From an uncultured Actinomycetes bacterium (GTDB taxonomy: Bacteria; Actinomycetota; UBA4738; JBBDTT01): DNA of 64,000 nt. Of this stretch, positions 12,277 through 46,967 are shown piece after piece. Where the stretch lies: assembly GCA_963742735.1 (NCBI GenBank), contig CAVUMN010000003.1, positions 544,001-608,000 of the forward strand. The letters run 5' to 3'. A program made the position numbers and the translations under genes. Under the pieces are notes generated by a model. It had not been told where the DNA came from and did no database searches. It was given only the letters and a program-made list of their open reading frames with translations. Numbering within the stretch: position 1 is the first letter of the stretch; each line of letters begins with the position of its first letter.

Positions 12277-13995
12277 CTACCCCGGCGAACCGCCGCGGCG
12301 ACGAACGGCGACCAGCGAGGCAAGCACGAGCACGAGAACGATCGCGCCGAGGACCAGGGCGAGGCCGAGCGGAGACTCGCCGGCGGGGGCCGGAGGCAGG
12401 GCCAGCCCGTCCGTCGGGCTCGGGCCGGGTTTCGGCGCGTCCGACTCCACGGACGTGAGCCGTTTTGCCCGAAGCACGAGGGTGTCGATCCCATCGGAGA
12501 CCGTCGCCGTCACCCGATAGTCGCCGCTCGGCAGGCCCGCCGGCACGATGAAGGTGCGGGTGAACGTTCCCCGTTTGTGGGGCTTGACGGCCGGCAGCGA
12601 GTGCGCGGTGCCGTCCCCGTCGACCAGCGCGACCGACACGTTCACGTTGGCGCTCGACTCGATCCCCACGCCCGAGCGCCGGCCCGCCTCGGCCTGCATC
12701 GGAGGCCCGAACAACCGGGCCTCGAGCACCGGCGCCGGGAGCTTCGCCGCGGTCACGCGCAGCGGCCGGGCGGGGACGATCCGCCACGGCCCCGATCCGC
12801 GCAGGCGTTTCCCCCGTGCCGACGGTGCGTCGGCCGCCACGGTCACGCTGGTGAGCCCCGTGGCCACGCCCACGCGGATCGTCGGCGGAACATTTGCGTC
12901 GCGCGGCGTCAGTCCTCCGTAGTAGTGGGCGAGGATCTCGCCCGCGTTCACCCCGCGCCGGGCCTTCCCGTAGGCGCCCCACTGGACCATCCCGGTCCCG
13001 TGGCCCCAGCCCCGGCCGTCCACCACCAGGTCGCGCCCGTCGGTTCTCGCGTCGAACCACTTGGAGGGGATCGTCTGGGGCAGGCCGGGGTGGTCCTCCT
13101 GCTCGAGGTCCTCCCCGGGATAGGAGGCGGGGTCCAGGCACACGGAGCGGTCGTTGATCGCGATCCGAAACGAGACCTTCGACATCGTGACCCGTCGCCC
13201 GCCGCCGCGGATCACCAGGTTCTCGCCCTCCTGGGAGACCGCCGCCATGTCGCCTCCGGGCCAGTCGCCGGACGCGGCCAGGAACCGGGCCACGTCGGCG
13301 AGCGGGAGACGGGCGGTCCATCGGGAGACCGGCGACGCGCCGTCGTCGGACTCGCCGACGCCGCGCAGGTACGGGAGCGGGGTCCCGCCCTCGAACACCT
13401 CCTCGTTGTCGTACGTCCGGCCGTTCGAGGTCGAGAAGTAGAACGTCTCGGCCGGGTGCCCGTCGTGGAGCAGGGCCGTGCCGGCGGTTCGGGCGACGGC
13501 GTCGCGCCACCGGGAGCCCCACGCCCCGTGGGAGACGCCCAGCCCTCGATAGACCTGGCAGGCGTCGGTGGCGCACAGGTCGTAGCCCAGGACGTCGCCG
13601 GTGCTGTCCCCGCGTTCGAGCCGGGACAGGGCGTAGGTCCGTGCCGCCACGACCTGGGCGTCGAGCGCCGCGGCCGGCCAATCCCGGGGGACCTCGGCGA
13701 TGCCCTCCAGGTAGGTCTCGAACGGGAGCTCGTTGATCACGAAGAGCGTGCCGTCGGAGGCCTTGCCGACCTCGACGCGCCCCGTGAGACGAAGGTGCAG
13801 CGGGGCGCGCTCGTCGCGGGCGCATTCCGTCTCCAGCGGGGGATACGTGCCGTGTACCAGGACGGAGTCGGCCTCGACGAACGTTCGGGGAGGCGCGGCG
13901 GCGGCCGCGGGCCCCGCGGCGACGGCCGGCCCCACGATCGACAGCGCGAGGAGCGCGACCACTCCGGCGGGCGCCGCGCGGGACGGCCGGCTCAG
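12277..13995 (-). CDS. SpoIID/LytB-domain protein (lytic transglycosylase-like) with C-terminal membrane anchor
   Basis: [53 protein letters not shown]. First canonical start is GTG 13962; CTG at 13995 (overlapping the upstream TGA) would add the basic signal-peptide n-region. Confidence 0.85.
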
Positions 13996-14604: not shown

Positions 14605-16227
14605 ATGGCGTCGCCGAACCCCCCGGTCCTCGACGCGCGGGCCCTCGTGGACGTCATGGGGCGCTTCGCCGATGCCCTCCGCGCCCATCGAGACGAGCTG
14701 AACTCCCTGAACGTCTTCCCGGTGCCCGACGGCGACACCGGCACCAACATGCTCCTCACCCAGGAGGCGGTCACCCGCGCGCTGGCGGCGAACGGCCACA
14801 CCGGGCTGCCCGAGGTCGGCGACGCGATCGCCCGCGCCTCGCTTATGGGCGCCCGCGGGAACTCGGGCGTGATCCTGTCCCAGGTCCTGCGAGGGCTCGT
14901 CTCCGTGCTGTGCGCCGGTGACCCGCCCGGCCCCGCGGCCCTGGCGGAGGCTCTCGAGGAGGCGACGCGCGAGGCCTACCGGGCGGTGGCCCGTCCCCGC
15001 GAGGGCACCGTGCTGACCGTCCTCGAGGCCGCGGCCGCGGCCGCGCGAGCGGCGTGCGACGCGGGGGGTGGGCTGCCCGAGGTGGCGGAGGCGGCGCTCC
15101 GCGCGGGTGCCGAGGCCCTCGAACGGACGCCCGAGCTCCTGCCCGAGCTCGCCCGCGCCGGCGTGGTCGACGCCGGCGGCCGCGGAGCCCTCCTGCTGTT
15201 CGACGCGCTCGCCTCGGTCCTGACCGGTGAGCCGATGTCGGTCGGCGTCGGCCCCCTCGGCCCCGTCGGGCGGGAGGAGACGGCTCGCCAGCCGGCGCCG
15301 CTCACGTTCTCGCACGAGGTGATGTACCTCCTGGAGGCGGCCGACGATTCGATCGCCGGCCTTGGGGAGGTCCTGGGAACGCTGGGCGACTCCCTGGTCA
15401 TCGTCGGAGGGCGCGGGCTCTACAACGTCCACGTCCACACCAACGAGGCCGACGCGGCGGTGGAGGCCGGACGCGGGGCCGGGCGGCCACGTGAGGTGCG
15501 GATCACCGACCTTCGCGAGGCGGTGGAGGAGCGGTGCCTCGCGGGCCAGGCCCGGGCGGTCCGGGTCGCCGAGCAGCGCGTCGCGATGGTGGCGGTGGCC
15601 GAGGGCGGCGGGCTCTCGGACCTGTTCAGGTCCCTGGGCGCGGTCGTGGTCACCGGCGGCCCGGGGCACAACCCCTCGGTGGAGGAGATCCACGCCGCGA
15701 TCCTGGTGACGGACGCCGATGCGGTGGTGGTCCTGCCGAATCACCGGAACGTGGTCCCCGCCGCCGAGCGAGCCGCGGAAGCGGCGGGGCCCGGGGCGCA
15801 GGTCCTGCCCACGCGGTCGGTTCCCGAGGGCCTGGCCGCAGCGGCCGTCTTCAATGCCCTCGGCGAGCCCGAGTCGGTCCGGGCGGAGATGGCCCGGGCC
15901 GCCGGCGGATGCGCGGCCGGCGAGCTGGCCGTGGCCGGGCGGGAGGCCGAGACCTCCGCCGGCCCGGTCCGTCCCGGCCAGTGGGTGGGGCTCGTCGACG
16001 GGACCATCGAGGTCCTCGGAGGGGATCCGGCCGCCGTCGCGGCCGAGCTGGTGGGGCGCCTGCTCCGCCCCGGTCACGAGGTCCTCACCCTGGTGACCGG
16101 TGAGGGCGCCTCGCCCGAGCAGGCCGAAGCGGTTCGCCTGGCCGTCGCGGCCGCCGCCCCGGACGTGGAGATCGAGGTGCACCGCGGGGACCAGCCCCGG
16201 TATCCGTATCTGATCGGCATCGAATGA
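14605..16227 (+). CDS. DAK2 domain fusion protein (FakA/YloV-like)
   Basis: LNVFPVPDGDTGTNM, GARGNSGVILSQ, EGTVLTV, VVDAGG, VHVHTN, NPS, LPN, ends LIGIE; lies between rpmB and recG. Confidence 0.92.
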   Translation: MASPNPPVLDARALVDVMGRFADALRAHRDELNSLNVFPVPDGDTGTNMLLTQEAVTRALAANGHTGLPEVGDAIARASLMGARGNSGVILSQVLRGLVSVLCAGDPPGPAALAEALEEATREAYRAVARPREGTVLTVLEAAAAAARAACDAGGGLPEVAEAALRAGAEALERTPELLPELARAGVVDAGGRGALLLFDALASVLTGEPMSVGVGPLGPVGREETARQPAPLTFSHEVMYLLEAADDSIAGLGEVLGTLGDSLVIVGGRGLYNVHVHTNEADAAVEAGRGAGRPREVRITDLREAVEERCLAGQARAVRVAEQRVAMVAVAEGGGLSDLFRSLGAVVVTGGPGHNPSVEEIHAAILVTDADAVVVLPNHRNVVPAAERAAEAAGPGAQVLPTRSVPEGLAAAAVFNALGEPESVRAEMARAAGGCAAGELAVAGREAETSAGPVRPGQWVGLVDGTIEVLGGDPAAVAAELVGRLLRPGHEVLTLVTGEGASPEQAEAVRLAVAAAAPDVEIEVHRGDQPRYPYLIGIE

Positions 16228-18410
16228 AGGCCCTCGGCGTGGACGCGCCCGTCAAGGATCTGGGCGGGGTGGCCTCGATGCCCACTCGCGGCGGCCGGGG
16301 GCGGGGCGGCCCGCCGGTGCACGAGGTGCTCTCCGAGAGCCTCGGCGTCCACACGGTCGACGACCTGCTCCATCACTATCCGCGTCGCTACGTCGATCGC
16401 TCCGCGATGGTCCCGATGCGGGACCTGAGGATCGGTCAGGAGGCCACCGTCATCGGGACGGTTCGCAAGGTCAACCGGGCCATGACCCGCCGGCGCCAGA
16501 CCATGGTGACGATCACCATCGGAGACGGCACCGGCTTCCTGGACCTGTTCTGGTTCAACCAGGCCTGGCCGGCCCAGCGGTTCAAGGAGGGCCAGGAGGT
16601 GATGGCCTCGGGGAAGCTCGGCGCGTACCGGGGCCGCCTGCGCGTGCCGAACCCCACGGTCGACATCATCAGGGGCGACGCCTCCGAGGCCGTCCACACC
16701 GGTCGCATCATCCCCATCCACCCCTCGACGGAAGGATTGTCCCCGGGGATGATCCGCCGGCTGGTGTTCGACGCGCTCAAGCGCGTGACGAGGCTGCCGG
16801 ACCCCATCCCGGACGCGCTCCGTCGGGCGGAGGACCTGGTGGCCCTCCCGGTGGCGATGCGCGGGATCCACTTCCCCGAGGACGAGACGCAGCTCCGCGC
16901 CGCGCGCGACCGCCTGAAGTTCGACGAGCTGTTCACCCTGGAGCTGGGGGTCGCGTTCCGGAAGCGCCGCGTGGCCGCCGAGACCCGCGGCGTCGAACAC
17001 GATCTGGCGGGCGCGCTGGCGAAGCGATACCTGGAAGCGCTCCCGTTCGAGCCCACCGAGGGCCAGCGGCGGGCGATCGCAGAGATCGAGGGGGACCTGG
17101 AGAGCTCCGCGCCCATGCATCGGCTCCTCCAGGGCGACGTGGGATCGGGCAAGACCGCCGTCGCCCTGCACGCCGCGATGGTGGCCATCCAGTCCGGACA
17201 CCAGGCCGCCCTCATGGCTCCCACGGAGGTGCTCGCCGCCCAGCACCTGCTGAAGGTCCGGGAGTTCCTCCGTCCCCTCGGTGCCTACGAGGTTGGGGAG
17301 GACGGTCCCGAGGGTCAGCTCGCGCTGGGGGAGGAGCGGCCCGACCGAGAGCTGACCTACGCGCTGCTGACGGCGTCGGTGACGGGGAAGGCTCGCCGGC
17401 GGGTCCTGGACGGTATCGCCTCGGGCGAGGTCGACCTGGTCGTCGGCACCCACGCGCTCGTCCAGGAGGGGGTGGCCTTCCGGGACCTCTCGCTGGCGGT
17501 GATCGACGAGCAGCATCGGTTCGGGGTCCACCAGCGCATCACGCTGAAGGAGAAGGGGGCATCCCCCGACATCCTGATCATGACGGCGACGCCGATCCCC
17601 CGGACGCTCGCGCTGACGTACTACGGCGACCTGGACGTCTCGGTCCTCGACGAGCTCCCCGCGGGCCGGCAGCCGATCGAGACGCGGGTCGTCCGTGGCG
17701 AGGCCCAGCGGGAAGCGGCCTATCGCCTGGTCCGGGAGGAGGTCGCGGCGGGCCGCCAGGCGTTCGTGGTCTGCGCGGCGATCGACGAGGGCAACCGGCT
17801 GGAGGTCAAGGCGGCCGAGGCCGAGGCGGACCGCCTGGCCACCGAGGTGTTCCCCGACCTGCGCGTCGCGCTCCTGCACGGCCGGATGCGCCCGGTCGAG
17901 AAGCAGGACCGCATGGAGGCCTTCCGAGGCGGAAACACCGACGTCCTGATCTCGACGACGGTGATCGAGGTCGGCGTGGACGTTCCGAACGCCACGGTGA
18001 TGCTGGTCGAGAACGCGGAGCGGTTCGGTCTGGCCCAGCTCCATCAGCTCCGGGGCCGTATCGGCCGCGGCGAGCACGCCAGCCACGCGGTGCTGTTCGA
18101 CGAGAGCGAGCCCGACAACGAGGTGGCTCGGGCCCGGCTCGAGGCCATGGTCCGGACCCAGGACGGGTTCGAGCTGGCCGACGTGGACCTGGACCTCCGC
18201 GGAGAGGGGACGCTGTTCGACGTCAAGCAGTCGGGGATGCCGGATCTGAAGCTGGCTCGTCTGTCACGGGACGCGGAGCTGGTGAAGCGAGCCCGCGCGC
18301 GGGCCTTCGCGCTCATCGATGAGGATCCCGAGCTGCAGGCTCACCCCGAGCTCAAGCGAGAGCTGGAGGCGCGTTTCGCGGATGCGATCGAGTGGCTGTT
18401 CCACTCGTAG
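16224..18410 (+). CDS. recG: ATP-dependent DNA helicase RecG
   Basis: RLKFDELF, LLQGDVGSGKT, DEQHRFG, MTATPIPRT, QLHQLRGRIGRG, DGFELA. Confidence 0.97.
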   Translation: MKALGVDAPVKDLGGVASMPTRGGRGRGGPPVHEVLSESLGVHTVDDLLHHYPRRYVDRSAMVPMRDLRIGQEATVIGTVRKVNRAMTRRRQTMVTITIGDGTGFLDLFWFNQAWPAQRFKEGQEVMASGKLGAYRGRLRVPNPTVDIIRGDASEAVHTGRIIPIHPSTEGLSPGMIRRLVFDALKRVTRLPDPIPDALRRAEDLVALPVAMRGIHFPEDETQLRAARDRLKFDELFTLELGVAFRKRRVAAETRGVEHDLAGALAKRYLEALPFEPTEGQRRAIAEIEGDLESSAPMHRLLQGDVGSGKTAVALHAAMVAIQSGHQAALMAPTEVLAAQHLLKVREFLRPLGAYEVGEDGPEGQLALGEERPDRELTYALLTASVTGKARRRVLDGIASGEVDLVVGTHALVQEGVAFRDLSLAVIDEQHRFGVHQRITLKEKGASPDILIMTATPIPRTLALTYYGDLDVSVLDELPAGRQPIETRVVRGEAQREAAYRLVREEVAAGRQAFVVCAAIDEGNRLEVKAAEAEADRLATEVFPDLRVALLHGRMRPVEKQDRMEAFRGGNTDVLISTTVIEVGVDVPNATVMLVENAERFGLAQLHQLRGRIGRGEHASHAVLFDESEPDNEVARARLEAMVRTQDGFELADVDLDLRGEGTLFDVKQSGMPDLKLARLSRDAELVKRARARAFALIDEDPELQAHPELKRELEARFADAIEWLFHS

Positions 18411-18427
18411 GGCCGCCGGGGTTTGGT

Positions 18428-18604
18428 TCAGGCGGCGCCGCGGCCGCGCGTCGCCGTCCGGCGCTTGACCTGACGGATCCGGGCGAAGGTCGAAGGGTGG
18501 ACCGAGATCGCGGCCTCGCGCTCCAGCTCGCAGACCAGGCAGAGTCTCGAAACGCGGGGGGTGAGTTTGCCGCAGGACTCACATCCTGTGAACCAGGCCT
18601 TCAT
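18428..18604 (-). CDS. 58-aa zinc-ribbon micro-protein (paralog A)
   Basis: ATG at 18604 after GGGAGGGAG; MKAWFTGCESCGKLTPRVSRLCLVC...; CxxC-x10-CxxC; aligns from Met1 with 18839..19006. Confidence 0.7.
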   Translation of the reverse strand: MKAWFTGCESCGKLTPRVSRLCLVCELEREAAISVHPSTFARIRQVKRRTATRGRGAA

Positions 18605-18645
18605 CGGGCTCCCTCCCGAAGCGATTATCGCTCCGCTCTCCTCCG

Positions 18646-18672
18646 GTATCGGCACATTTCGCCCCTTCTTGA
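18646..18672 (-). promoter_or_regulatory. sigma28 (WhiG/FliA)-type promoter TCAAG-N14-GCCGATAC
   Basis: Close to the TAAA-N15-GCCGATAA consensus; 41 nt upstream of paralog A; identical boxes and spacing at 26163..26189. Confidence 0.65.
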
Positions 18673-18782
18673 GGTGTGTGTCCCGATATCGGTTAGAGCG
18701 CCGAACCGCGGCCGGGGATACGCGCTGGCGACCGGAAGTCGCGCGGTCAGGCACGGGGACGATCCGGAGGGGGCGGGGCGGA

Positions 18783-18835
18783 GCCCCCACTCCAGACCGA
18801 CCACGGGGCTTGTCCCGTGGCCGGTCTGAGGGGGC
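18783..18835. terminator. long imperfect hairpin just downstream of micro-protein B
   Basis: GCCCCC/GGGGGC, CAGACCG/CGGTCTG and CCACGGG/CCCGTGG pair around a GCTTGT loop; begins 3 nt after the stop at 18839; no U-tract. Confidence 0.55.
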
Positions 18836-18838
18836 GCA

Positions 18839-19006
18839 TCACCGATCGTCGTACCGGTAACGCCTTCGCTCCCGGGCGACTACGCGGCGCGCTGCAGACG
18901 CGTTCGCCTGCCCTGCGGAGCGAGAGGTCTTGCAGTCGTCGCACGTCCCCGAAACGCTCGTGGTCCGAGCGCCGCAGATACCGCATCCGGTGAACCACAT
19001 CCTCAT
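18839..19006 (-). CDS. 55-aa zinc-ribbon micro-protein (paralog B), absent from ORF track
   Basis: Manual translation MRMWFTGCGICGARTTSVSGTCDDCKTSRSAGQANASAARRVVARERRRYRYDDR*; GAGGTAGGTG SD upstream. Confidence 0.7.
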   Translation of the reverse strand: MRMWFTGCGICGARTTSVSGTCDDCKTSRSAGQANASAARRVVARERRRYRYDDR

Positions 19007-19039
19007 GTGCCACCTACCTCGTGCGACTAGTTGACTAGT

Positions 19040-19067
19040 TCGTCGGTACGTTGCCCTTCCCTCTTGA
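19040..19067 (-). promoter_or_regulatory. sigma28-like promoter TCAAG-N15-ACCGACGA
   Basis: Shares CCTCAAGA...AA.GT.CCGA with the paralog A promoter; 33 nt upstream of the paralog B start. Confidence 0.5.
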
Positions 19068-19113
19068 GGGTGATCAAGCGGATATTTGGGACGACGTCAG
19101 AATTGGTCACGAG

Positions 19114-19716
19114 ATGAAGAGGCATCCGGTGTTCGCGAGGTTCTACCGGCTCCTGGAGCGTGTCGTGGCCGACGTGGAGCGGCCGTACCGGGAGGAGACG
19201 GCGGGCGGCGCGCGGGGTCGCGTGCTGGAGGTGGGCGCCGGCACGGGGGCCAACCTCGCGCTCTACGCGGACGGGACGGACGTCGTCGCCCTCGAGCCCG
19301 ACCCGCACATGCTGCGAGAGCTGCGAACGCGCGCGGCCGGCCGCCCCGTTCGGATCCTGCGAGGCTCGGCGCAGGCCCTGCCGTTCGGCGACGGGTCGTT
19401 CGACACCGTGGTCATCTCGCTGGTGCTGTGCTCGGTTGCCGATCCAGACGGCGCCGTGCGGGAGCTCCGGCGGGTGCTGGGCCCCGGGGGCCGCCTGCGG
19501 TTCTACGAGCACGTGCGGTCCGAGGATCCCCGGCTGGCCCGGCGGCAGGACCGATGGGAGCGGGCGTGGGGATGGTTCAGCGGCGGGTGCCATCCCAACC
19601 GGGACACCCTCGCAACCCTGCGCGCCGGCGGCTTCGAGGTCACGGCTCGCGGATGGAGCATGCCCCGGGCCTGGATCGCCGCCCCCCACATCGTGGGGGA
19701 GGCCCTCTCGGGGTGA
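19114..19716 (+). CDS. class I SAM-dependent methyltransferase
   Basis: VLEVGAGTGAN, ALEPD, LPFGDGSFDTVV, LCSV, FYEHV, GGCHPNRDT. Confidence 0.9.
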   Translation: MKRHPVFARFYRLLERVVADVERPYREETAGGARGRVLEVGAGTGANLALYADGTDVVALEPDPHMLRELRTRAAGRPVRILRGSAQALPFGDGSFDTVVISLVLCSVADPDGAVRELRRVLGPGGRLRFYEHVRSEDPRLARRQDRWERAWGWFSGGCHPNRDTLATLRAGGFEVTARGWSMPRAWIAAPHIVGEALSG

Positions 19717-21836: not shown

Positions 21837-22019
21837 GTGCCGGTACCGAAGCGAAAGCAGTCCCGCTCCAACACGCGGGCGCGGAAGGCGAACTGGAAGT
21901 CCGCGATCTCCGCGCCCACGTACGCGGAGTGCCCGCAGTGCCATCAGCCGAAGCGACCCCACGCCGTCTGCCAGAACTGTGGCTACTACGACGGCCGCGA
22001 GGTCCTCGAGGTCGAGTAG
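21837..22019 (+). CDS. rpmF: 50S ribosomal protein L32
   Basis: [18 protein letters not shown]...CPQC...[11 protein letters not shown]. Confidence 0.97.
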
Positions 22020-26129: not shown

Positions 26130-26162
26130 ACGCACCCCCGGTCACTAGTTCTTCGGGGCCAC

Positions 26163-26189
26163 TCAAGCTCTCGCCGCCTGAGCCGATAC
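26163..26189 (+). promoter_or_regulatory. sigma28 (WhiG/FliA)-type promoter TCAAG-N14-GCCGATAC
   Basis: Boxes and spacing identical to 18646..18672; intergenic, upstream of the 26262 gene. Confidence 0.65.
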
Positions 26190-26261
26190 GACTAGTGCGC
26201 CGCGAACACGCGGCGGACGGCAGGGCCGCCCGCGCCCCCTCGAGTGAAGGCGGTGCCCCCA

Positions 26262-28157
26262 ATGGGTCGGCGTGTTCCTGGTTCAGCGCCTCCTCGTCTC
26301 GTTCTTCTCTTGGCCCTCGCGGTTGGGCTCTCGGCCGGACTCCTGCCCGGCACGGCCAACGCCGCAAGCGGGGCGGACACGCCGCGGGCGGCGGGGCTCC
26401 CGGAGGATCACCCCGAGCGCGGCCTGGTCTACCGAGGCCTGCGCCCCGCGCGTGCGGACGGGCCGTGTCGCGGACACGGCTACGAGGTGGCCGACACGCG
26501 CGGCGAGACCAGCTGCACCCACGGCCCCGACGTCGCGCCGGCCGGGGTCGACGTTCGCGAGCGGCGCTCGACCGCGGAGATCGCCGCCGACGCGGCGGGC
26601 TCGGCGGCCGCCCAGGGAACCGCCCTCACCTGCATCGGCGACGGCGTGTCCGGCCCCCGGGTTCAGGCGGTGTACGCACGCGCGTCCAACGTGACGAGCC
26701 GCTACTCGAGCGTGCTCGCCTCGATCCGCAGCTACGCGGCCCAGATGGACGCCGACATCAACGCCTCGGCCGCGCAGACCGGCGGCACCCGCCATATCCG
26801 ATGGGTCACCGACGCGAGCTGTCAGCCGACGGTCCTGAACGTCACCCTCTCCACCGCGGGTGACGACGACGTCTACAAGACCCGCGACGAGCTCCGGGCC
26901 CAGGGCTACAACCGAACCGACCGGAAGTACGTCGTGTGGATGGACGCCAACGTCTACTGCGGGATCGGGTTCGTCGAGAACGACGACTCGGCGGGCTCCA
27001 CCAACCGCAACAACGGCATCGTCCAGGGGATGGTCGCCCGGGCCGACAACCAGTGCTGGGGCTCGGTCGAGAGCCACGAGCTGATGCACACCCTCGGGGG
27101 CGTGCAGCTCTCCGCGCCGCACACCACCGGTCTCTGGCACTGCTGGGACGAGTGGGACAAGATGTGTTACGCGGACGGCGGCTCGCACGGAATGATCTAC
27201 ACGTGCGGCTCCGACATGGGCCGGCTGTTCGACTGCGGACACGACGACTACTTCCACACGAACCCTCCGGCCGGCTCGTACCTGGCCACGCACTGGAACA
27301 CGGCGCGGAGCAGCTTCCTCGACGCAAGCGAGACGCCTCCGCCGCCTCCGCCCCCGTCAACCCAGACCCTCACGGTCTCACGCTCGGGCGCGGGGACCGG
27401 CACCATCACCAGCGTCCCGGCCGGGATCAACTGCGGCACGGACTGCACCCAGAGCTACACGTCCGGCACGGTGGTCACGCTGACGTCTCTTCCAAGCCCG
27501 GGCTCGGTCCTCTCCGGTTGGTCGGGGGCCTGCACGGGTCTCCCCGTGTGCGTGGTGACGATGTCCATCGCGAAGAGTGTGACGGCGACGTTCGGGCTCG
27601 GCACGCCGCCCCCGCCCCCTCCGCCGCCGCCGCCGACCGGCACCGTGGTCACCATGACCGACCTGGGCTACACACCGACCATCGTGAAACCCGCGCAGGG
27701 CACCGCCGTGACGTGGTCCTTCACCGGGCTGGGTACGCACGGGGTGATCGACAACAACGGGATGGCCCTCTACAGCTCGGGAGCGAAGCCCGCGGGGTCG
27801 ACCTTCGCTTTCACCTTCTCCGCGGCGGGGACCTACAACTACAAGGACCCCTACAACACCCTCCTGACGGGCCAGGTCAAGGTCCCGATGAAGGTGACGC
27901 CCGCCAGCGGAACCACCGCGACGCCCGTAACGGTCCGGTGGGCAAGCATGGCGACGTTCGCCCCCTGGGCGTTCGACGTACAGATCCGCCGGCCGGGTGG
28001 CCTGTGGGTGACGTTTCGGACGGCAGTGACCTACGCCTACGCGACGTTCACTCCGGATTCGGGAACCGGGACGTATTCGTTCCGCTCGCGTCTGCGCAAC
28101 ACCAGCACAGGCGCGGCTACGGGCTACTCGGCCGCGGGCTCTATCACGGTCTCCTAA
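26262..28157 (+). CDS. secreted HExxH metallopeptidase-like protein with divergent InlB-B repeat, cupredoxin-like and Fn3-like domains
   Basis: Signal peptide; SHELMHTLG; poly-Pro linkers; TLTVSRSGAGTGTITS..GINCG...SGWSGAC...VTATF; GTAVTW...GTYNY...GQVKV. Alternative start GTG 26244. Confidence 0.75.
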   Translation: MGRRVPGSAPPRLVLLLALAVGLSAGLLPGTANAASGADTPRAAGLPEDHPERGLVYRGLRPARADGPCRGHGYEVADTRGETSCTHGPDVAPAGVDVRERRSTAEIAADAAGSAAAQGTALTCIGDGVSGPRVQAVYARASNVTSRYSSVLASIRSYAAQMDADINASAAQTGGTRHIRWVTDASCQPTVLNVTLSTAGDDDVYKTRDELRAQGYNRTDRKYVVWMDANVYCGIGFVENDDSAGSTNRNNGIVQGMVARADNQCWGSVESHELMHTLGGVQLSAPHTTGLWHCWDEWDKMCYADGGSHGMIYTCGSDMGRLFDCGHDDYFHTNPPAGSYLATHWNTARSSFLDASETPPPPPPPSTQTLTVSRSGAGTGTITSVPAGINCGTDCTQSYTSGTVVTLTSLPSPGSVLSGWSGACTGLPVCVVTMSIAKSVTATFGLGTPPPPPPPPPPTGTVVTMTDLGYTPTIVKPAQGTAVTWSFTGLGTHGVIDNNGMALYSSGAKPAGSTFAFTFSAAGTYNYKDPYNTLLTGQVKVPMKVTPASGTTATPVTVRWASMATFAPWAFDVQIRRPGGLWVTFRTAVTYAYATFTPDSGTGTYSFRSRLRNTSTGAATGYSAAGSITVS

Positions 28158-44481: not shown

Positions 44482-45438
44482 ATGCCACCTTCCCCCGAAG
44501 TGCGACAACCGACACCGGCCGAGTCCGATCCGGACCTGGCCGACCGGCCGAGCCCCCGTGACGCCGCGCTGATCGGCGCGTTCCTGGATCACCTGGAGCA
44601 CGGCCGGCGCCTGTCGCCCAACACGATCGCCGCCTATCGCGTGGACCTGGAAGGTCTGGGGACGTTCCTGGCCCGCTACGGGGCCGGGCTGCTCGAGGCG
44701 GATCACCCGACGCTGAGACGGTGGCTCGCCCACCTGAGCACCCGCGGATACGCCCGGACCTCGATCGCGCGCAAGGCCGCGGCCGTCCGGTCGCTCTACA
44801 AGCACCTTCGCCGAGGGGGCGGCCTCGCGGTGGACCCGTCGGAGATGCTCTCGGCGCCGAAGGCTCCCTCCCGGCTGCCCGTGATCCTCAAGCCGGCCGA
44901 GGCCGCCGCCCTGGTCGAGTCGCCCTCGGGAGAGGATCCCTGGTCCCGGCGCGACCGCGCGCTGCTCGAGCTGATGTACGGCTCTGGCCTGCGCGTCGGG
45001 GAGGTCTCCGGGCTCGACATCGCCGACGTCGACCTTCGACGGATGCGGGTTCGCGTCCTCGGGAAGGGATCGAAGGAGCGCGACGTTCCACTTGGTGACC
45101 TCTCCGTGGAGGCGATCGAGCGCTGGCTCGACACACGGGGGACGGTCGCGAACGACCAGGAGCCGGCCTTGTTCGTGAATCGTCGTGGACGGCGGGCGAC
45201 CCCTCGCGACATGCGCGCCGCGGTGGAACAATATCGACGCGTCTCACTCGAGGCCCGGCGGGTGAGCCCGCACGCGCTGAGGCACGCCTACGCAACGCAC
45301 CTGCTGGAGGGAGGCGCCGACATCAGAGCGGTCCAGGAGCTCCTGGGCCACGCGAGCCTGGCCACCACGCAGCGCTACACCCACGTCTCACGCGGCCGGT
45401 TGTTCGCCGCGTACCGCCAGGGACACCCCCGCGCCTGA
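44482..45438 (+). CDS. xerC: tyrosine recombinase XerC
   Basis: [49 protein letters not shown]; canonical position after dprA. Confidence 0.9.
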
Positions 45439-46232
45439 TGGCCAGCGAAGCGCCCCCCTTCGACGCCCCCGCCTCCGTCCTCGACCGCCTGTGGCAGGAC
45501 TTCAAGGCGAGCGCCTCCCCCAAGGCCCGAGAACAGCTGATCCTGCACTACTCGCCGCTGGTGAAGTACGTGGCCAGCCGTCTCGCCAGCGGGCTGCCCG
45601 CCAACGTCGAGCAGGGCGACCTGGTCTCCTACGGCATCTTCGGGCTCATCGACGCGCTGGAGAAGTTCGACATGGGCCGGGCCATCAAGTTCGAGACCTA
45701 CGCCGTTCCCCGGATCCGGGGGGCGATCATCGACGGGATGCGGGCCAACGACTGGGTTCCGCGCTCGGTTCGATCGAAGGCTCGCGAGGTGGACAAGGCG
45801 ATCACCGGGCTGGAGTCCTCGCTGGGGCGGACCCCCACGGACGAGGAGGTGGCGGGCCGGATGGGCCTGAGCCAGGGGGAGCTCCGCGACACCATGAATC
45901 AGATCTCGTTCGTGTCCGTCATGGCCCTCGACGAGCTCCTGCACACCAGCGAGGGCGAGGGGATGTCGCTGCTCGAGACGCTGCCGGATCGCAGCGCGCT
46001 CGACGCCAGCGGGCCGATGGAGAGCCAGGAGGGCCGGGCCATGCTCGCCCAGGCGATCAACGCGCTCGCGGAGCGGGAGAAGATCGTGGTCACCCTCTAC
46101 TACTTCGAGGGCCTGACCCTGAACGAGATCGGCGGTGTGCTCGGGGTCACCGAGTCTCGGGTCTGCCAGATCCACACCAAGGCGGTCGGCTCGCTCCGGG
46201 GCTTGCTCGCGGACGATCCCGACGAGGACTGA
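45438..46232 (+). CDS. whiG: FliA/WhiG family RNA polymerase sigma factor (sigma28)
   Basis: [74 protein letters not shown]. Confidence 0.9.
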
Positions 46233-46301
46233 GCCCTCGACGACCGGCCGTGTCACTGGGTCGTGCCAGACTGCGGTCACCTCCGGGGTGCGAGGGATCC
46301 G

Positions 46302-46967
46302 ATGCCCGCACCCGAGATTCGAAGATCGCTCCGGGCGGCGCCGGCGACCCTGCTCGTGGCGACGCTGGCGCTCGCCGTGACGGTGCCGGCCGCGGTTCGG
46401 GCGGCGCCGAGCGAGCCCGAGCCGTACGCCTGGCCCGTCGCGGGGCCGGTGCTGCGGGGCTTCGAGCCACCCGACTCGCCCTACGGCGCTGGCCACCGGG
46501 GGATCGACATCGGCGCGCCGCTGGGCACGCCGGTCCACGCGAGCGCGTCCGGCACGGTTGCCTTCGCCGGGTGGGTCGCCGGTTCCCGGTTCGTGTCGAT
46601 CGATCACCCCGACGGGATCCGGACCACGTACTCGTTCCTGTCGGCGATCTCGGTCGCGCGGGGTGAGGCCGTCGGGCGAGGCGGGCTGATCGGCGCGACC
46701 GGTCACGGCCACTCGGGAGTCGACCGGCCGCACCTGCACTTCGGAGCTCGTCGCGGCGAGACGTATCTGGATCCCTTGGTCCTGCTCGGAGCGGCCGCGC
46801 CCCGAGTCCACCTCGCGCCGATCGCGGGGACGTCCTCCGGTGAACCGGCCGCCGACCCCTGGGGATCGATCACGGGGCTGGGGGAGGCCGCGCCGCGGCC
46901 GCACTGGCTCTGGTCCCGCGCCGAGCCGAAGCCGCTGGTGCTGCCGGGCCGGGCATCGTCCGGCTGA
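46302..46967 (+). CDS. M23 family peptidase (secreted)
   Basis: Signal peptide; WPVAG, GHRGIDI, HLHFG, YLDP. Confidence 0.9.
   Translation: MPAPEIRRSLRAAPATLLVATLALAVTVPAAVRAAPSEPEPYAWPVAGPVLRGFEPPDSPYGAGHRGIDIGAPLGTPVHASASGTVAFAGWVAGSRFVSIDHPDGIRTTYSFLSAISVARGEAVGRGGLIGATGHGHSGVDRPHLHFGARRGETYLDPLVLLGAAAPRVHLAPIAGTSSGEPAADPWGSITGLGEAAPRPHWLWSRAEPKPLVLPGRASSG

Follow-up and report, generated by a model that had tools for sequence, protein, structure and literature searches.

Two paralogous genes for predicted small C4 zinc-finger proteins behind WhiG-type promoters in an uncultured soil actinobacterial class

The locus and its two small genes

Between recG and a class I S-adenosylmethionine (SAM) methyltransferase gene in an uncultured actinobacterium (G000; 3.08 Mb in five contigs, 71% G+C, 88.9% complete) lie two short minus-strand open reading frames (ORFs), A and B, whose products are predicted to be basic C4 zinc-finger proteins. 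Positions given here are those of the window, the whole stretch of 64 000 nucleotides that was analysed (G000:C3:544001-608000). ORF A (18839..19006, stop codon 18841-18839) encodes 55 residues with a net charge of +7, and ORF B (18428..18604) encodes 58 residues with a net charge of +8 and ends in Ala-Ala. Coordinates and sequences are as claimed in an earlier note on this DNA, and the neighbours that it named are confirmed: recG (16224..18410, plus strand) scores 875.6 bits against NCBIfam RecG, and the methyltransferase gene, divergent beside ORF A and probably starting at ATG 19114, matches Methyltransf_11 with an E value of 4.9e-23. ORF B is convergent with recG and runs into its end. It is also, as had been noticed, buried in a longer frame, being the distal portion of a 120-residue ORF with a GTG start (18428..18790); the in-frame sequence 5' of Met1 of B is not conserved.

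The two products are clearly related. ORF A is of the form MRMWFTGC..CG..TTSVSG.CDDC followed by an Arg-rich tail (A-type), and ORF B is of the form MKAWFTGC..CG...RVS.LCLVCELEREAA..HPS (B-type). BLASTP aligns them from Met1 with 15 of 32 residues identical (E 3e-9 for this single comparison). A recount from the sequences gives the 13 identities among the first 25 residues that were originally reported, and the motif CxxC-x10-CxxC is indeed common to both. In a six-frame search of their own genome A and B each match only the other copy (E values of 6e-5 and 7e-5), everything else having an E value above 0.1. The tails had been described as Arg-rich and unrelated; they are Arg-rich, but they are not wholly unrelated, since a basic stretch, R-R-[VI], can be aligned throughout the family, and at least 90% of 17 aligned sequences have Arg41. 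Each ORF has a Shine-Dalgarno-like stretch, as had been claimed, which we read from the minus-strand sequence as GAGGTAGGTGG (19020-19010) for A and GGGAGGGAG (18617-18609) for B. A palindrome, AGCGAT-A-ATCGCT (18620-18632, minus strand), stands between the promoter and the Shine-Dalgarno-like stretch of B; it is not conserved in related loci (G001 and L096, see below) and is therefore probably not significant.

Homologues that keep the reading frame were found in relatives, where they start at the same Met. Among 41 relatives searched in six frames, two had strong matches, one of the same genus (G001) and one from another family of the order (G012). ORF A has orthologues in G001 (81% identical), in G012 (54% identical to A; one copy there) and on a metagenome contig, L096; ORF B has orthologues in G001 (57%) and on L096 (74%), and among the database proteins P0006 and P0019. 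The gene order on L096 is that of the window: methyltransferase, A, hairpin, B and convergent recG. A profile search extended the family to 19 of 294 genomes of the order at E ≤ 1e-3, and the 12 further homologous ORFs in relatives are all of 51–56 residues with an ATG start aligned with Met1. Met1, Cys8, Cys11, Cys22 and Cys25 are invariant in the 17-sequence alignment.

The ratio of nonsynonymous to synonymous substitution rates (dN/dS, Nei–Gojobori), a check that the earlier note had proposed, lies between 0.12 and 0.58 and so below 1 in all 14 pairs; it is 0.28–0.34 between ORF A orthologues (0.28 against L096) and 0.26–0.50 between ORF B orthologues (0.26 against L096). Five differences within the ORFs were seen on low-depth contigs from four soil metagenome runs; four are synonymous third-position changes and the fifth is G9S, in a variable column. 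The copy in one genome (G205) is frameshifted, and Cys25 is lost in two database members. Unpublished genomes supplied the G209 and G210 sequences, one dN/dS pair and two of the 19 (or, with the larger profile below, 20) positive genomes, and the main claims are independent of them. With frame-preserving homologues that share the Met start, dN/dS below 1 and some 27 small relatives among 1.84e9 proteins, A and B are almost certainly translated genes.

The duplication that produced them is, on this sequence evidence, old, and both copies have been maintained, because A and B fall into separate clades, each with orthologues of its own. In a tree built by maximum likelihood from 35 members over 56 columns, which leaves many forks unresolved, the B clade (G000_B, G001_B, P0006 and P0019) has support of 99/100 and sits on a long branch; the A-type group (G000_A, G001_A and G012) has support of 89/13 and is not its sister. 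B-type proteins share LCL[VA]C[ED]LERE.AM..HPS. A fatty-acid desaturase gene and a TetR-family gene, ∼1.9 kb, separate A from B in G001 (L009, L028), whereas A and B are adjacent in G000 (18605-18838 lying between them) and on L096, so one lineage had an insertion or deletion. An old duplication had been proposed for a whole promoter-plus-gene unit, and the same promoter type is indeed kept in both copies.

Promoters, hairpin and WhiG

Each gene is preceded, on the minus strand, by a promoter of the WhiG/sigma-28 type. That of A (19039..19068) consists of CTCAAG (19068-19063), a 16-nt spacer and CCGACGAA (19046-19039), and that of B (18645..18673) of CTCAAG (18673-18668), a 15-nt spacer and CCGATACC (18652-18645). 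Written in another way, the A promoter is CTCA-N17-aCCGACGA, which fits the published forms CTCA-N17-xCCGA and TCAA-N16-xCCGA; the −10 element of B, taken with the preceding G, reads GCCGATAC, and its promoter is CTCA-N16-GCCGATAC. The actinobacterial WhiG1/FliA consensus is given as CTCA-N16-17-GCCGAACT and that of WhiG2 as T(A/C)AA-N16-GCCGATAA (bioRxiv 10.64898/2026.01.14.699351). The search rule of the same study (T(A/C)AA-N16-GCCGA or CTCA-N16-17-GCCGA no more than 200 bp upstream of the start, with an unvarying CGA and a single mismatch tolerated in the two bases that precede it) finds both promoters, at 61–69 nt upstream of the ATG, in agreement with the sigma-28-like promoters first noticed here and in a genome that encodes WhiG. 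Applied to the family, the rule finds a site before five of 17 homologues and before none of 17 in a reverse-complement control, and 500 shuffles gave a mean of 0.22 and a maximum of 2.

Conservation picks out the same elements. CTCAAG and CCGACG are invariant in the A-type loci (G000, G001, L096 and G012) while the spacer changes, and the B promoter is kept in G001 (GCCGAAAG) and on L096 (GCCGATAC). The two elements are 16 nt apart in all four loci of A-type and 15 nt apart in all three of B-type; over all seven, CTCAAG and CCGA are invariant, and the spacer sequence and 5' untranslated region (UTR) diverge. A scan of 18200..19300 found no sigma-70 consensus.

A strict form of the motif, TCAAG-N15-17-CCGATA, occurs at six sites in the genome, compared with a mean of 0.52 and a maximum of 2 in 25 third-order Markov genomes and with ∼0.3 sites at each of the other spacer lengths. 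All six are on contig C3, each 6–55 nt 5' of the start of a same-strand ORF. Two of the genes that follow encode response regulators, one an atypical member of the NarL/LuxR type (L081) and one with a receiver domain (L084); three others encode secreted or membrane proteins, and the sixth is ORF B. The sites at L083 and L085 precede proteins of no known family. When the published −35 variants are combined with xCCGATA there are seven distinct sites, none of them within a coding frame, and the motif is kept before orthologous genes in G000 (L083) and G001 (L106). Orthologues of the WhiI-like regulator were sought in four relatives, where only paralogues (33–36% identity) were found.

Within the window, a strict site (CTCAAG-N15-CCGATA, 26162-26188, plus strand) stands 5' of ORF 26244..28154, which encodes a probable secreted protein of 637 residues with a Flg_new_2/InlB B-repeat-like domain. 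The motif also precedes a second, unrelated four-cysteine protein of 107–125 residues ([MV]T[TR]IR[TA]TCP[RT]CGEVD ... CP.C), which starts 8–11 nt after CTCAA[CG]-N15/16-[GT]CCGATA in three families of the order; its loci are G000:C3:912601-912948 (minus strand; L109, outside the window), L102:1540-1896 (G012) and L107:1540-1914 (G202). It belongs to no Pfam family, the match to DUF7560 (19 bits) being below the cut-off.

The whiG gene itself lies in the window (45438..46232, plus strand). Its product is a FliA/WhiG-family sigma factor with 267.7 bits against TIGR02479 (cut-off 189.6) and 343.1 bits against NF004935, 'sigma factor WhiG' (cut-off 343), and would be the trans-acting factor for both promoters. 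We consider it probable, from the promoter sequences, that A and B depend on WhiG, the case for B being stronger than that for A. Genes for cell-wall remodelling also occur in the window near this developmental sigma factor gene: an M23 peptidase gene directly 3' of whiG (46263-46967, plus strand) and, upstream of the yloV–recG pair, the gene of a SpoIID/LytB-domain protein (12280-13962, minus strand). No flagellin and no FlgM were found in this 88.9%-complete genome. The exact cyclic di-GMP motif of RsiG, E(x)3S(x)2R(x)3Q(x)3D, was not found either, in a six-frame regular-expression scan of the incomplete genome that is cruder than a profile search. Co-occurrence of the small proteins with WhiG is uninformative, WhiG being present in 269 of the 294 genomes of the order, a count that includes at least 22 unpublished genomes. 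A literature search joining WhiG with zinc ribbons returned nothing related.

A long G+C-rich hairpin (∼18783-18837, minus strand) lies directly 3' of the A stop codon and has no U-tract, and a consensus terminator scan of 18200..19300 found no T-tract terminator. The 241-nt spacer here folds at −130.5 kcal/mol (z −4.0), with none of 200 shuffles as stable. The presence of the long hairpin reported between the two genes is confirmed. The same hairpin is present in G001 and on L096, and a paired A-T to G-C change, read by eye, occurs in G001. It is probably the transcript end of A and would insulate B.

A different kind of leader accompanies five homologues in genus g57 (L051, L053, L054, L055 and L060), where ∼190 nt upstream is as conserved as the ORF and carries 1-nt indels, and where leader and gene are found as a unit in differing genomic contexts. 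One possibility is a long and regulated 5' UTR; another is that promoter and gene are mobile as one module. Rfam gave no match, and for a structured leader the RNAalifold covariation term is unfavourable (+2.72), with double changes in only four of 65 pairs among five close sequences.

The protein family and its predicted fold

Proteins of ∼55 residues are routinely missed by gene callers. In a word-indexed collection of 5.8e9 proteins only one relative, matching A, was found. A HMMER pass over 1.84e9 representatives gave 41 matches at E ≤ 1e-3, 12 of them at E ≤ 1e-10; of the 29 examined, 27 have M-[KR]-x-[WLIV]-[FL]-x-[GA]-C-x-x-C-G-...-C-x-x-C-[ED] followed by a basic tail, and the remaining two are multi-repeat zinc-ribbon proteins. 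Some database members have mis-called upstream starts. A 35-sequence profile places the family in 20 of 294 genomes of the class, in ten of 78 genera; class and order comprise the identical 294 genomes in the collection used. Three of 401 genomes in a phylum-wide sample are positive, all three within the order, with none among 369 outside it. A degenerate DNA pattern for M-x-x-W-F-T-G-C-x-x-C-G matched seven stretches in the species-genome collection: five in Actinomycetota metagenome-assembled genomes (MAGs), one in an 'uncultured bacterium' MAG and one in an unrelated-looking bacterium. Members are 47–60 residues long, and all 37 that were aligned have a net charge of +4 to +10 and an isoelectric point of at least 9.3.

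Presence varies even inside one genus, and the flanking genes vary between genera and at times within one. No conserved synteny across genera was found among 29 flanking ORFs in 13 loci, the recurring families being confined to one genus.

No described family claims these proteins in Pfam, NCBIfam, PHROGs or PADLOC, which agrees with the view that their family was not a recognised one. With Pfam and NCBIfam models, A stays below every cut-off and B is not matched even at E ≤ 1. The nearest models to A are Zn_ribbon_LapB (PF18073; 13.9 bits, cut-off 25.7), DUF7129 (14.7 bits, cut-off 30) and rubre_like_arch (12 bits, cut-off 32). Zn_ribbon_LapB, a rubredoxin-like model, is weakly matched by 16 of the 35 members at E ≤ 0.01 (best E 2.9e-5), and fewer members match other zinc-ribbon models. 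The curated zinc-ribbon families considered (Zn_ribbon_LapB, DZR_2, DUF7129 and the NCBIfam rubrerythrin-like model) were set aside, as the curated cut-off was not reached. PHROGs and PADLOC gave weak E values with one to three of the 35 members per family (HNH endonuclease, restriction enzyme), stray matches that are due to cysteine motifs. A literature search on small zinc-ribbon proteins in Actinobacteria or sporulation showed no such family among the matches listed. On the sequence comparisons, A and B belong to a new, uncurated family of a known type, the small C4 zinc-finger proteins, in one uncultured soil class of Actinomycetota.

AlphaFold2 models built on family alignments have mean predicted local distance difference test (pLDDT) values of 68 for A and 73 for B. 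Residues 1–30 are better defined, at 77–88 over both models and 77–83 in A. Both models have short strands at residues 6–7 and 14–15 and a helix from residue 23, with Cys8 and Cys11 on a beta-knuckle and Cys22 and Cys25 at the helix start. Over 35 sequences Cys8, Cys11 and Cys22 never vary and Cys25 is kept in 90% or more, the pattern of a generic C4 zinc finger. Given these conserved cysteines and a model of moderate confidence, the site is predicted to bind zinc, which we think likely. With the second CxxC at the helix start, the topology looks treble-clef-like rather than that of a two-knuckle ribbon, which refines the label of zinc ribbon given at the outset.

No significant fold match was found among solved structures. 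The rows tied in the VIA-align search include ZAD domains, mitoribosomal zinc proteins and CsfB, among others; chain 5n7y_C of CsfB has a Z of 2.2 and a root-mean-square deviation of 3.5 over 38 residues, tied with unrelated rows, and the topology of the model is compatible with it. The best profile matches to proteins of solved structure are archaeal eL37 (E 0.0026, positions 7–39), bL36 (E 0.23) and uS14 (E 0.3), ribosomal proteins other than eL37 all having E ≥ 0.0073. Significant similarity to the zinc-ribbon ribosomal proteins was not found: eL37 is borderline, bL32 scores poorly (see below) and no NCBIfam ribosomal model matched. Structure prediction and similarity go no further than to indicate a small C4 zinc finger that has a basic extension.

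Possible function and comparison with known systems

We read A and B as two real, separately transcribed and anciently duplicated genes for WhiG-timed, nucleic-acid-binding zinc fingers; taken as a whole, this reading has about an even chance of being right. In this lineage each gene's own WhiG-type promoter would cause both proteins to be made when WhiG is active, the transcript of A ending at the conserved hairpin and that of B being read into the convergent end of recG. The N-terminal four-cysteine site, with a bound metal that is probably zinc, would give a compact fold, from which the poorly ordered Arg-rich tail might bind nucleic acid, either RNA (or the ribosome) or DNA. Binding of nucleic acid by such a tail on a zinc-finger scaffold is suggested by the sequences and is a tentative proposal, which we put somewhat below an even chance. 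B, like many members of the family, may also be short-lived through a C-terminal Ala-Ala degron of the ClpXP type. The overall interpretation in the earlier note, a duplicated unit encoding a small zinc-binding regulator, is supported in part, all of its testable parts having held.

Several results weigh against this interpretation. The 12 homologues in family f5 all lack a WhiG-type site, which makes WhiG control a trait of the lineage and not of the family. Likewise, WhiG is near-universal in the order while the small protein is present in 20 genomes, which precludes an obligate partnership with WhiG. In A, the −10 element (aCCGACGA) is not a full match to GCCGATAA. In its loose published form the motif has tens of matches within genes whatever the spacer length, and the case for WhiG consequently depends on the strict form, on conservation and on the intergenic position of the sites. 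On the structural side the tails have pLDDT values of 52–59, with the last three residues of B (56–58) below 50. Foldseek found no match in the Protein Data Bank (PDB) at E ≤ 0.001 (best E 1.6), and VIA-align against 48 161 chains gave a best Z of 2.8, with 21 rows at Z ≥ 2 and none at Z ≥ 5. The borderline eL37 match is mainly the cysteine motif, and hhalign gives a probability of 13% for the genome's own bL32 (21837..22016). The Ala-Ala counts given below are not independent, as the members are related, although such endings occur in several clades.

The chief alternative is that A and B bind protein instead, as small zinc-finger anti-sigma factors or RNA-polymerase binders resembling CsfB (Gin) that could exert feedback on WhiG or some other sigma factor. 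The positions of the cysteines in the models, on a knuckle and at a helix start, recall CsfB, in which Cys11 and Cys14 are on a beta-hairpin knuckle and Cys30 and Cys33 in the first helix turn, followed by a low-complexity C-terminus (PMC5890618). WhiG-type promoters on both genes would suit such a role, as would the failure to find flagellin, FlgM or the exact RsiG motif, though for RsiG the scan was of the crude kind described above; a patchy accessory distribution, fast-evolving tails and the Ala-Ala end are also what might be expected of a regulator. Against this, the ten Pfam families matched by the 35 members at E ≤ 0.01 include neither Gin nor an anti-sigma family, the CsfB structure scores no better than unrelated rows, WhiG is far more widespread than the small protein and the charge of +7 and +8 points rather to nucleic acid; we regard a sigma-factor or polymerase binder as unlikely. 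Equally improbable, in our estimate, is that the shared promoter is read by another sigma factor of the extracytoplasmic-function (ECF) or group-3 kind and that its likeness to sigma-28 promoters is a coincidence. At least five more matches to the sigma-70 family occur in the genome, the −35 element is CTCAAG and not TAAA, and A has CCGACG and not CCGATA. CTCA-N16-17-GCCGA and T(A/C)AA-N16-GCCGATAA are nonetheless the forms published for WhiG1/FliA and WhiG2, respectively (bioRxiv 10.64898/2026.01.14.699351), the strict motif stands before the gene of an atypical response regulator of the NarL/LuxR class, to which the known Streptomyces WhiG target WhiI also belongs, and the motif is kept upstream of orthologues in relatives (L083 and L106; L109, L102 and L107).

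The remaining alternatives have less to recommend them. The products might not be macromolecule-binding zinc fingers at all and might instead be precursors of a peptide modified at Cys, Ser or Thr, metal buffers or chaperones, or redox sensors. Those residues abound in the N-terminal half of A-type proteins, a methyltransferase gene is divergent beside A in G000, G001 and L096, and CxxCG ... CPxC resembles rubredoxin knuckles, in line with the weak Zn_ribbon_LapB matches. It is, however, the N-terminus that is conserved and the basic tail that varies; no methyltransferase gene lies beside the G012 or f5 homologues, the one here scores 35.5 bits against a cut-off of 175 with the daptide methyltransferase model, and neither a modifying enzyme nor a transporter recurs among the flanking ORFs. 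The class of ribosomally synthesised and post-translationally modified peptide (RiPP) precursors was rejected, no RiPP enzyme recurring among the same ORFs. We consider this group of explanations very unlikely. Least probable is that the ORFs are untranslated and that RNA or DNA elements account for the conservation. Very short ORFs arise easily at 71% G+C, and A had a single match among 5.8e9 sequences. Yet dN/dS is below 1 in every tested pair, substitutions are concentrated at third positions, start and frame are kept across three families of the order and the four cysteines are invariant; the conserved leaders in g57 have 1-nt indels while the ORFs that follow have none, and Rfam returned only a plant microRNA model (E 0.12) for 18300..19200 and no match at E ≤ 0.1 for eight homologous loci.

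FlgM, RsiG and CsfB control sigma factors elsewhere, and the same role would be played by A and B if they formed a new feedback module on a sigma factor or RNA polymerase. By analogy, a zinc-dependent binder, with B degraded by ClpXP, would then set how long WhiG stays active. This idea draws on WhiG being near-universal in the class while flagellin, FlgM and the RsiG motif were not found here, and we hold it to be quite improbable. Returning to WhiG-timed nucleic-acid-binding proteins, we regard the new gene family as solid and infer its regulatory input from sequence. It is a conserved and selected small-protein family of an uncultured soil actinobacterial class with two paralogues in the predicted WhiG regulon, the mapping of WhiG targets beyond Streptomyces having only recently begun. 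Should the link to WhiG and a nucleic-acid or polymerase target be confirmed, A and B would be a new small effector of actinobacterial developmental or dormancy control and, with the Ala-Ala end, a further regulator timed by a C-terminal degron.

Among known systems, the zinc-ribbon ribosomal proteins (eL37, bL36, type-Z uS14 and bL32) share the build of CxxC...CxxC with an Arg/Lys-rich extension in ∼40–60 residues. The family differs in being patchy and in variable genomic contexts, which does not fit a core ribosomal protein, and the promoters of A and B are predicted, as WhiG-type promoters, to be stage-specific. CsfB is made under a developmental sigma factor in Bacillus sporulation. Like A and B, this Bacillus subtilis zinc-finger anti-sigma factor is small, with one CxxC on a knuckle, one at a helix start and a low-complexity C-terminus (PDB entry 5N7Y; PMC5890618); it differs in being a firmicute protein with a spacing of x15 between the cysteine pairs in place of x10, and A and B are far more basic and have no Gin family match.

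PopR and ClgR are actinobacterial regulators with C-terminal Ala-Ala ClpXP degrons. In Streptomyces, a C-terminal Ala-Ala is required for the degradation of sigma-AntA by ClpXP (PMC7142297). B ends in ...GRGAA, and with ten other members, 11 of 35 in all, it has the Ala-Ala-COOH of this degron class on a tail modelled as disordered; a further five of 35 end in Val-Ala, and Ala makes up 12% of residues. A-type proteins differ in ending in DDR, DDDR or THA, with no Ala-Ala. Turnover of B by ClpXP is suggested by this analogy and may be entertained at a little under even chances.

A further comparison is with the WhiG (sigma-28) regulons described for Actinomycetota. The organisms analysed here are uncultured and probably outside the genome set of the regulon study, and the main texts of bioRxiv 10.64898/2026.01.14.699351 and PMC8325347 name no small zinc-finger target, the word zinc being absent from both. 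The likeness lies in the response regulators among the co-regulated genes and in the promoters themselves, which have the geometry and core bases of the published sites: CTCA or T(A/C)AA, N16-17 and xCCGA.

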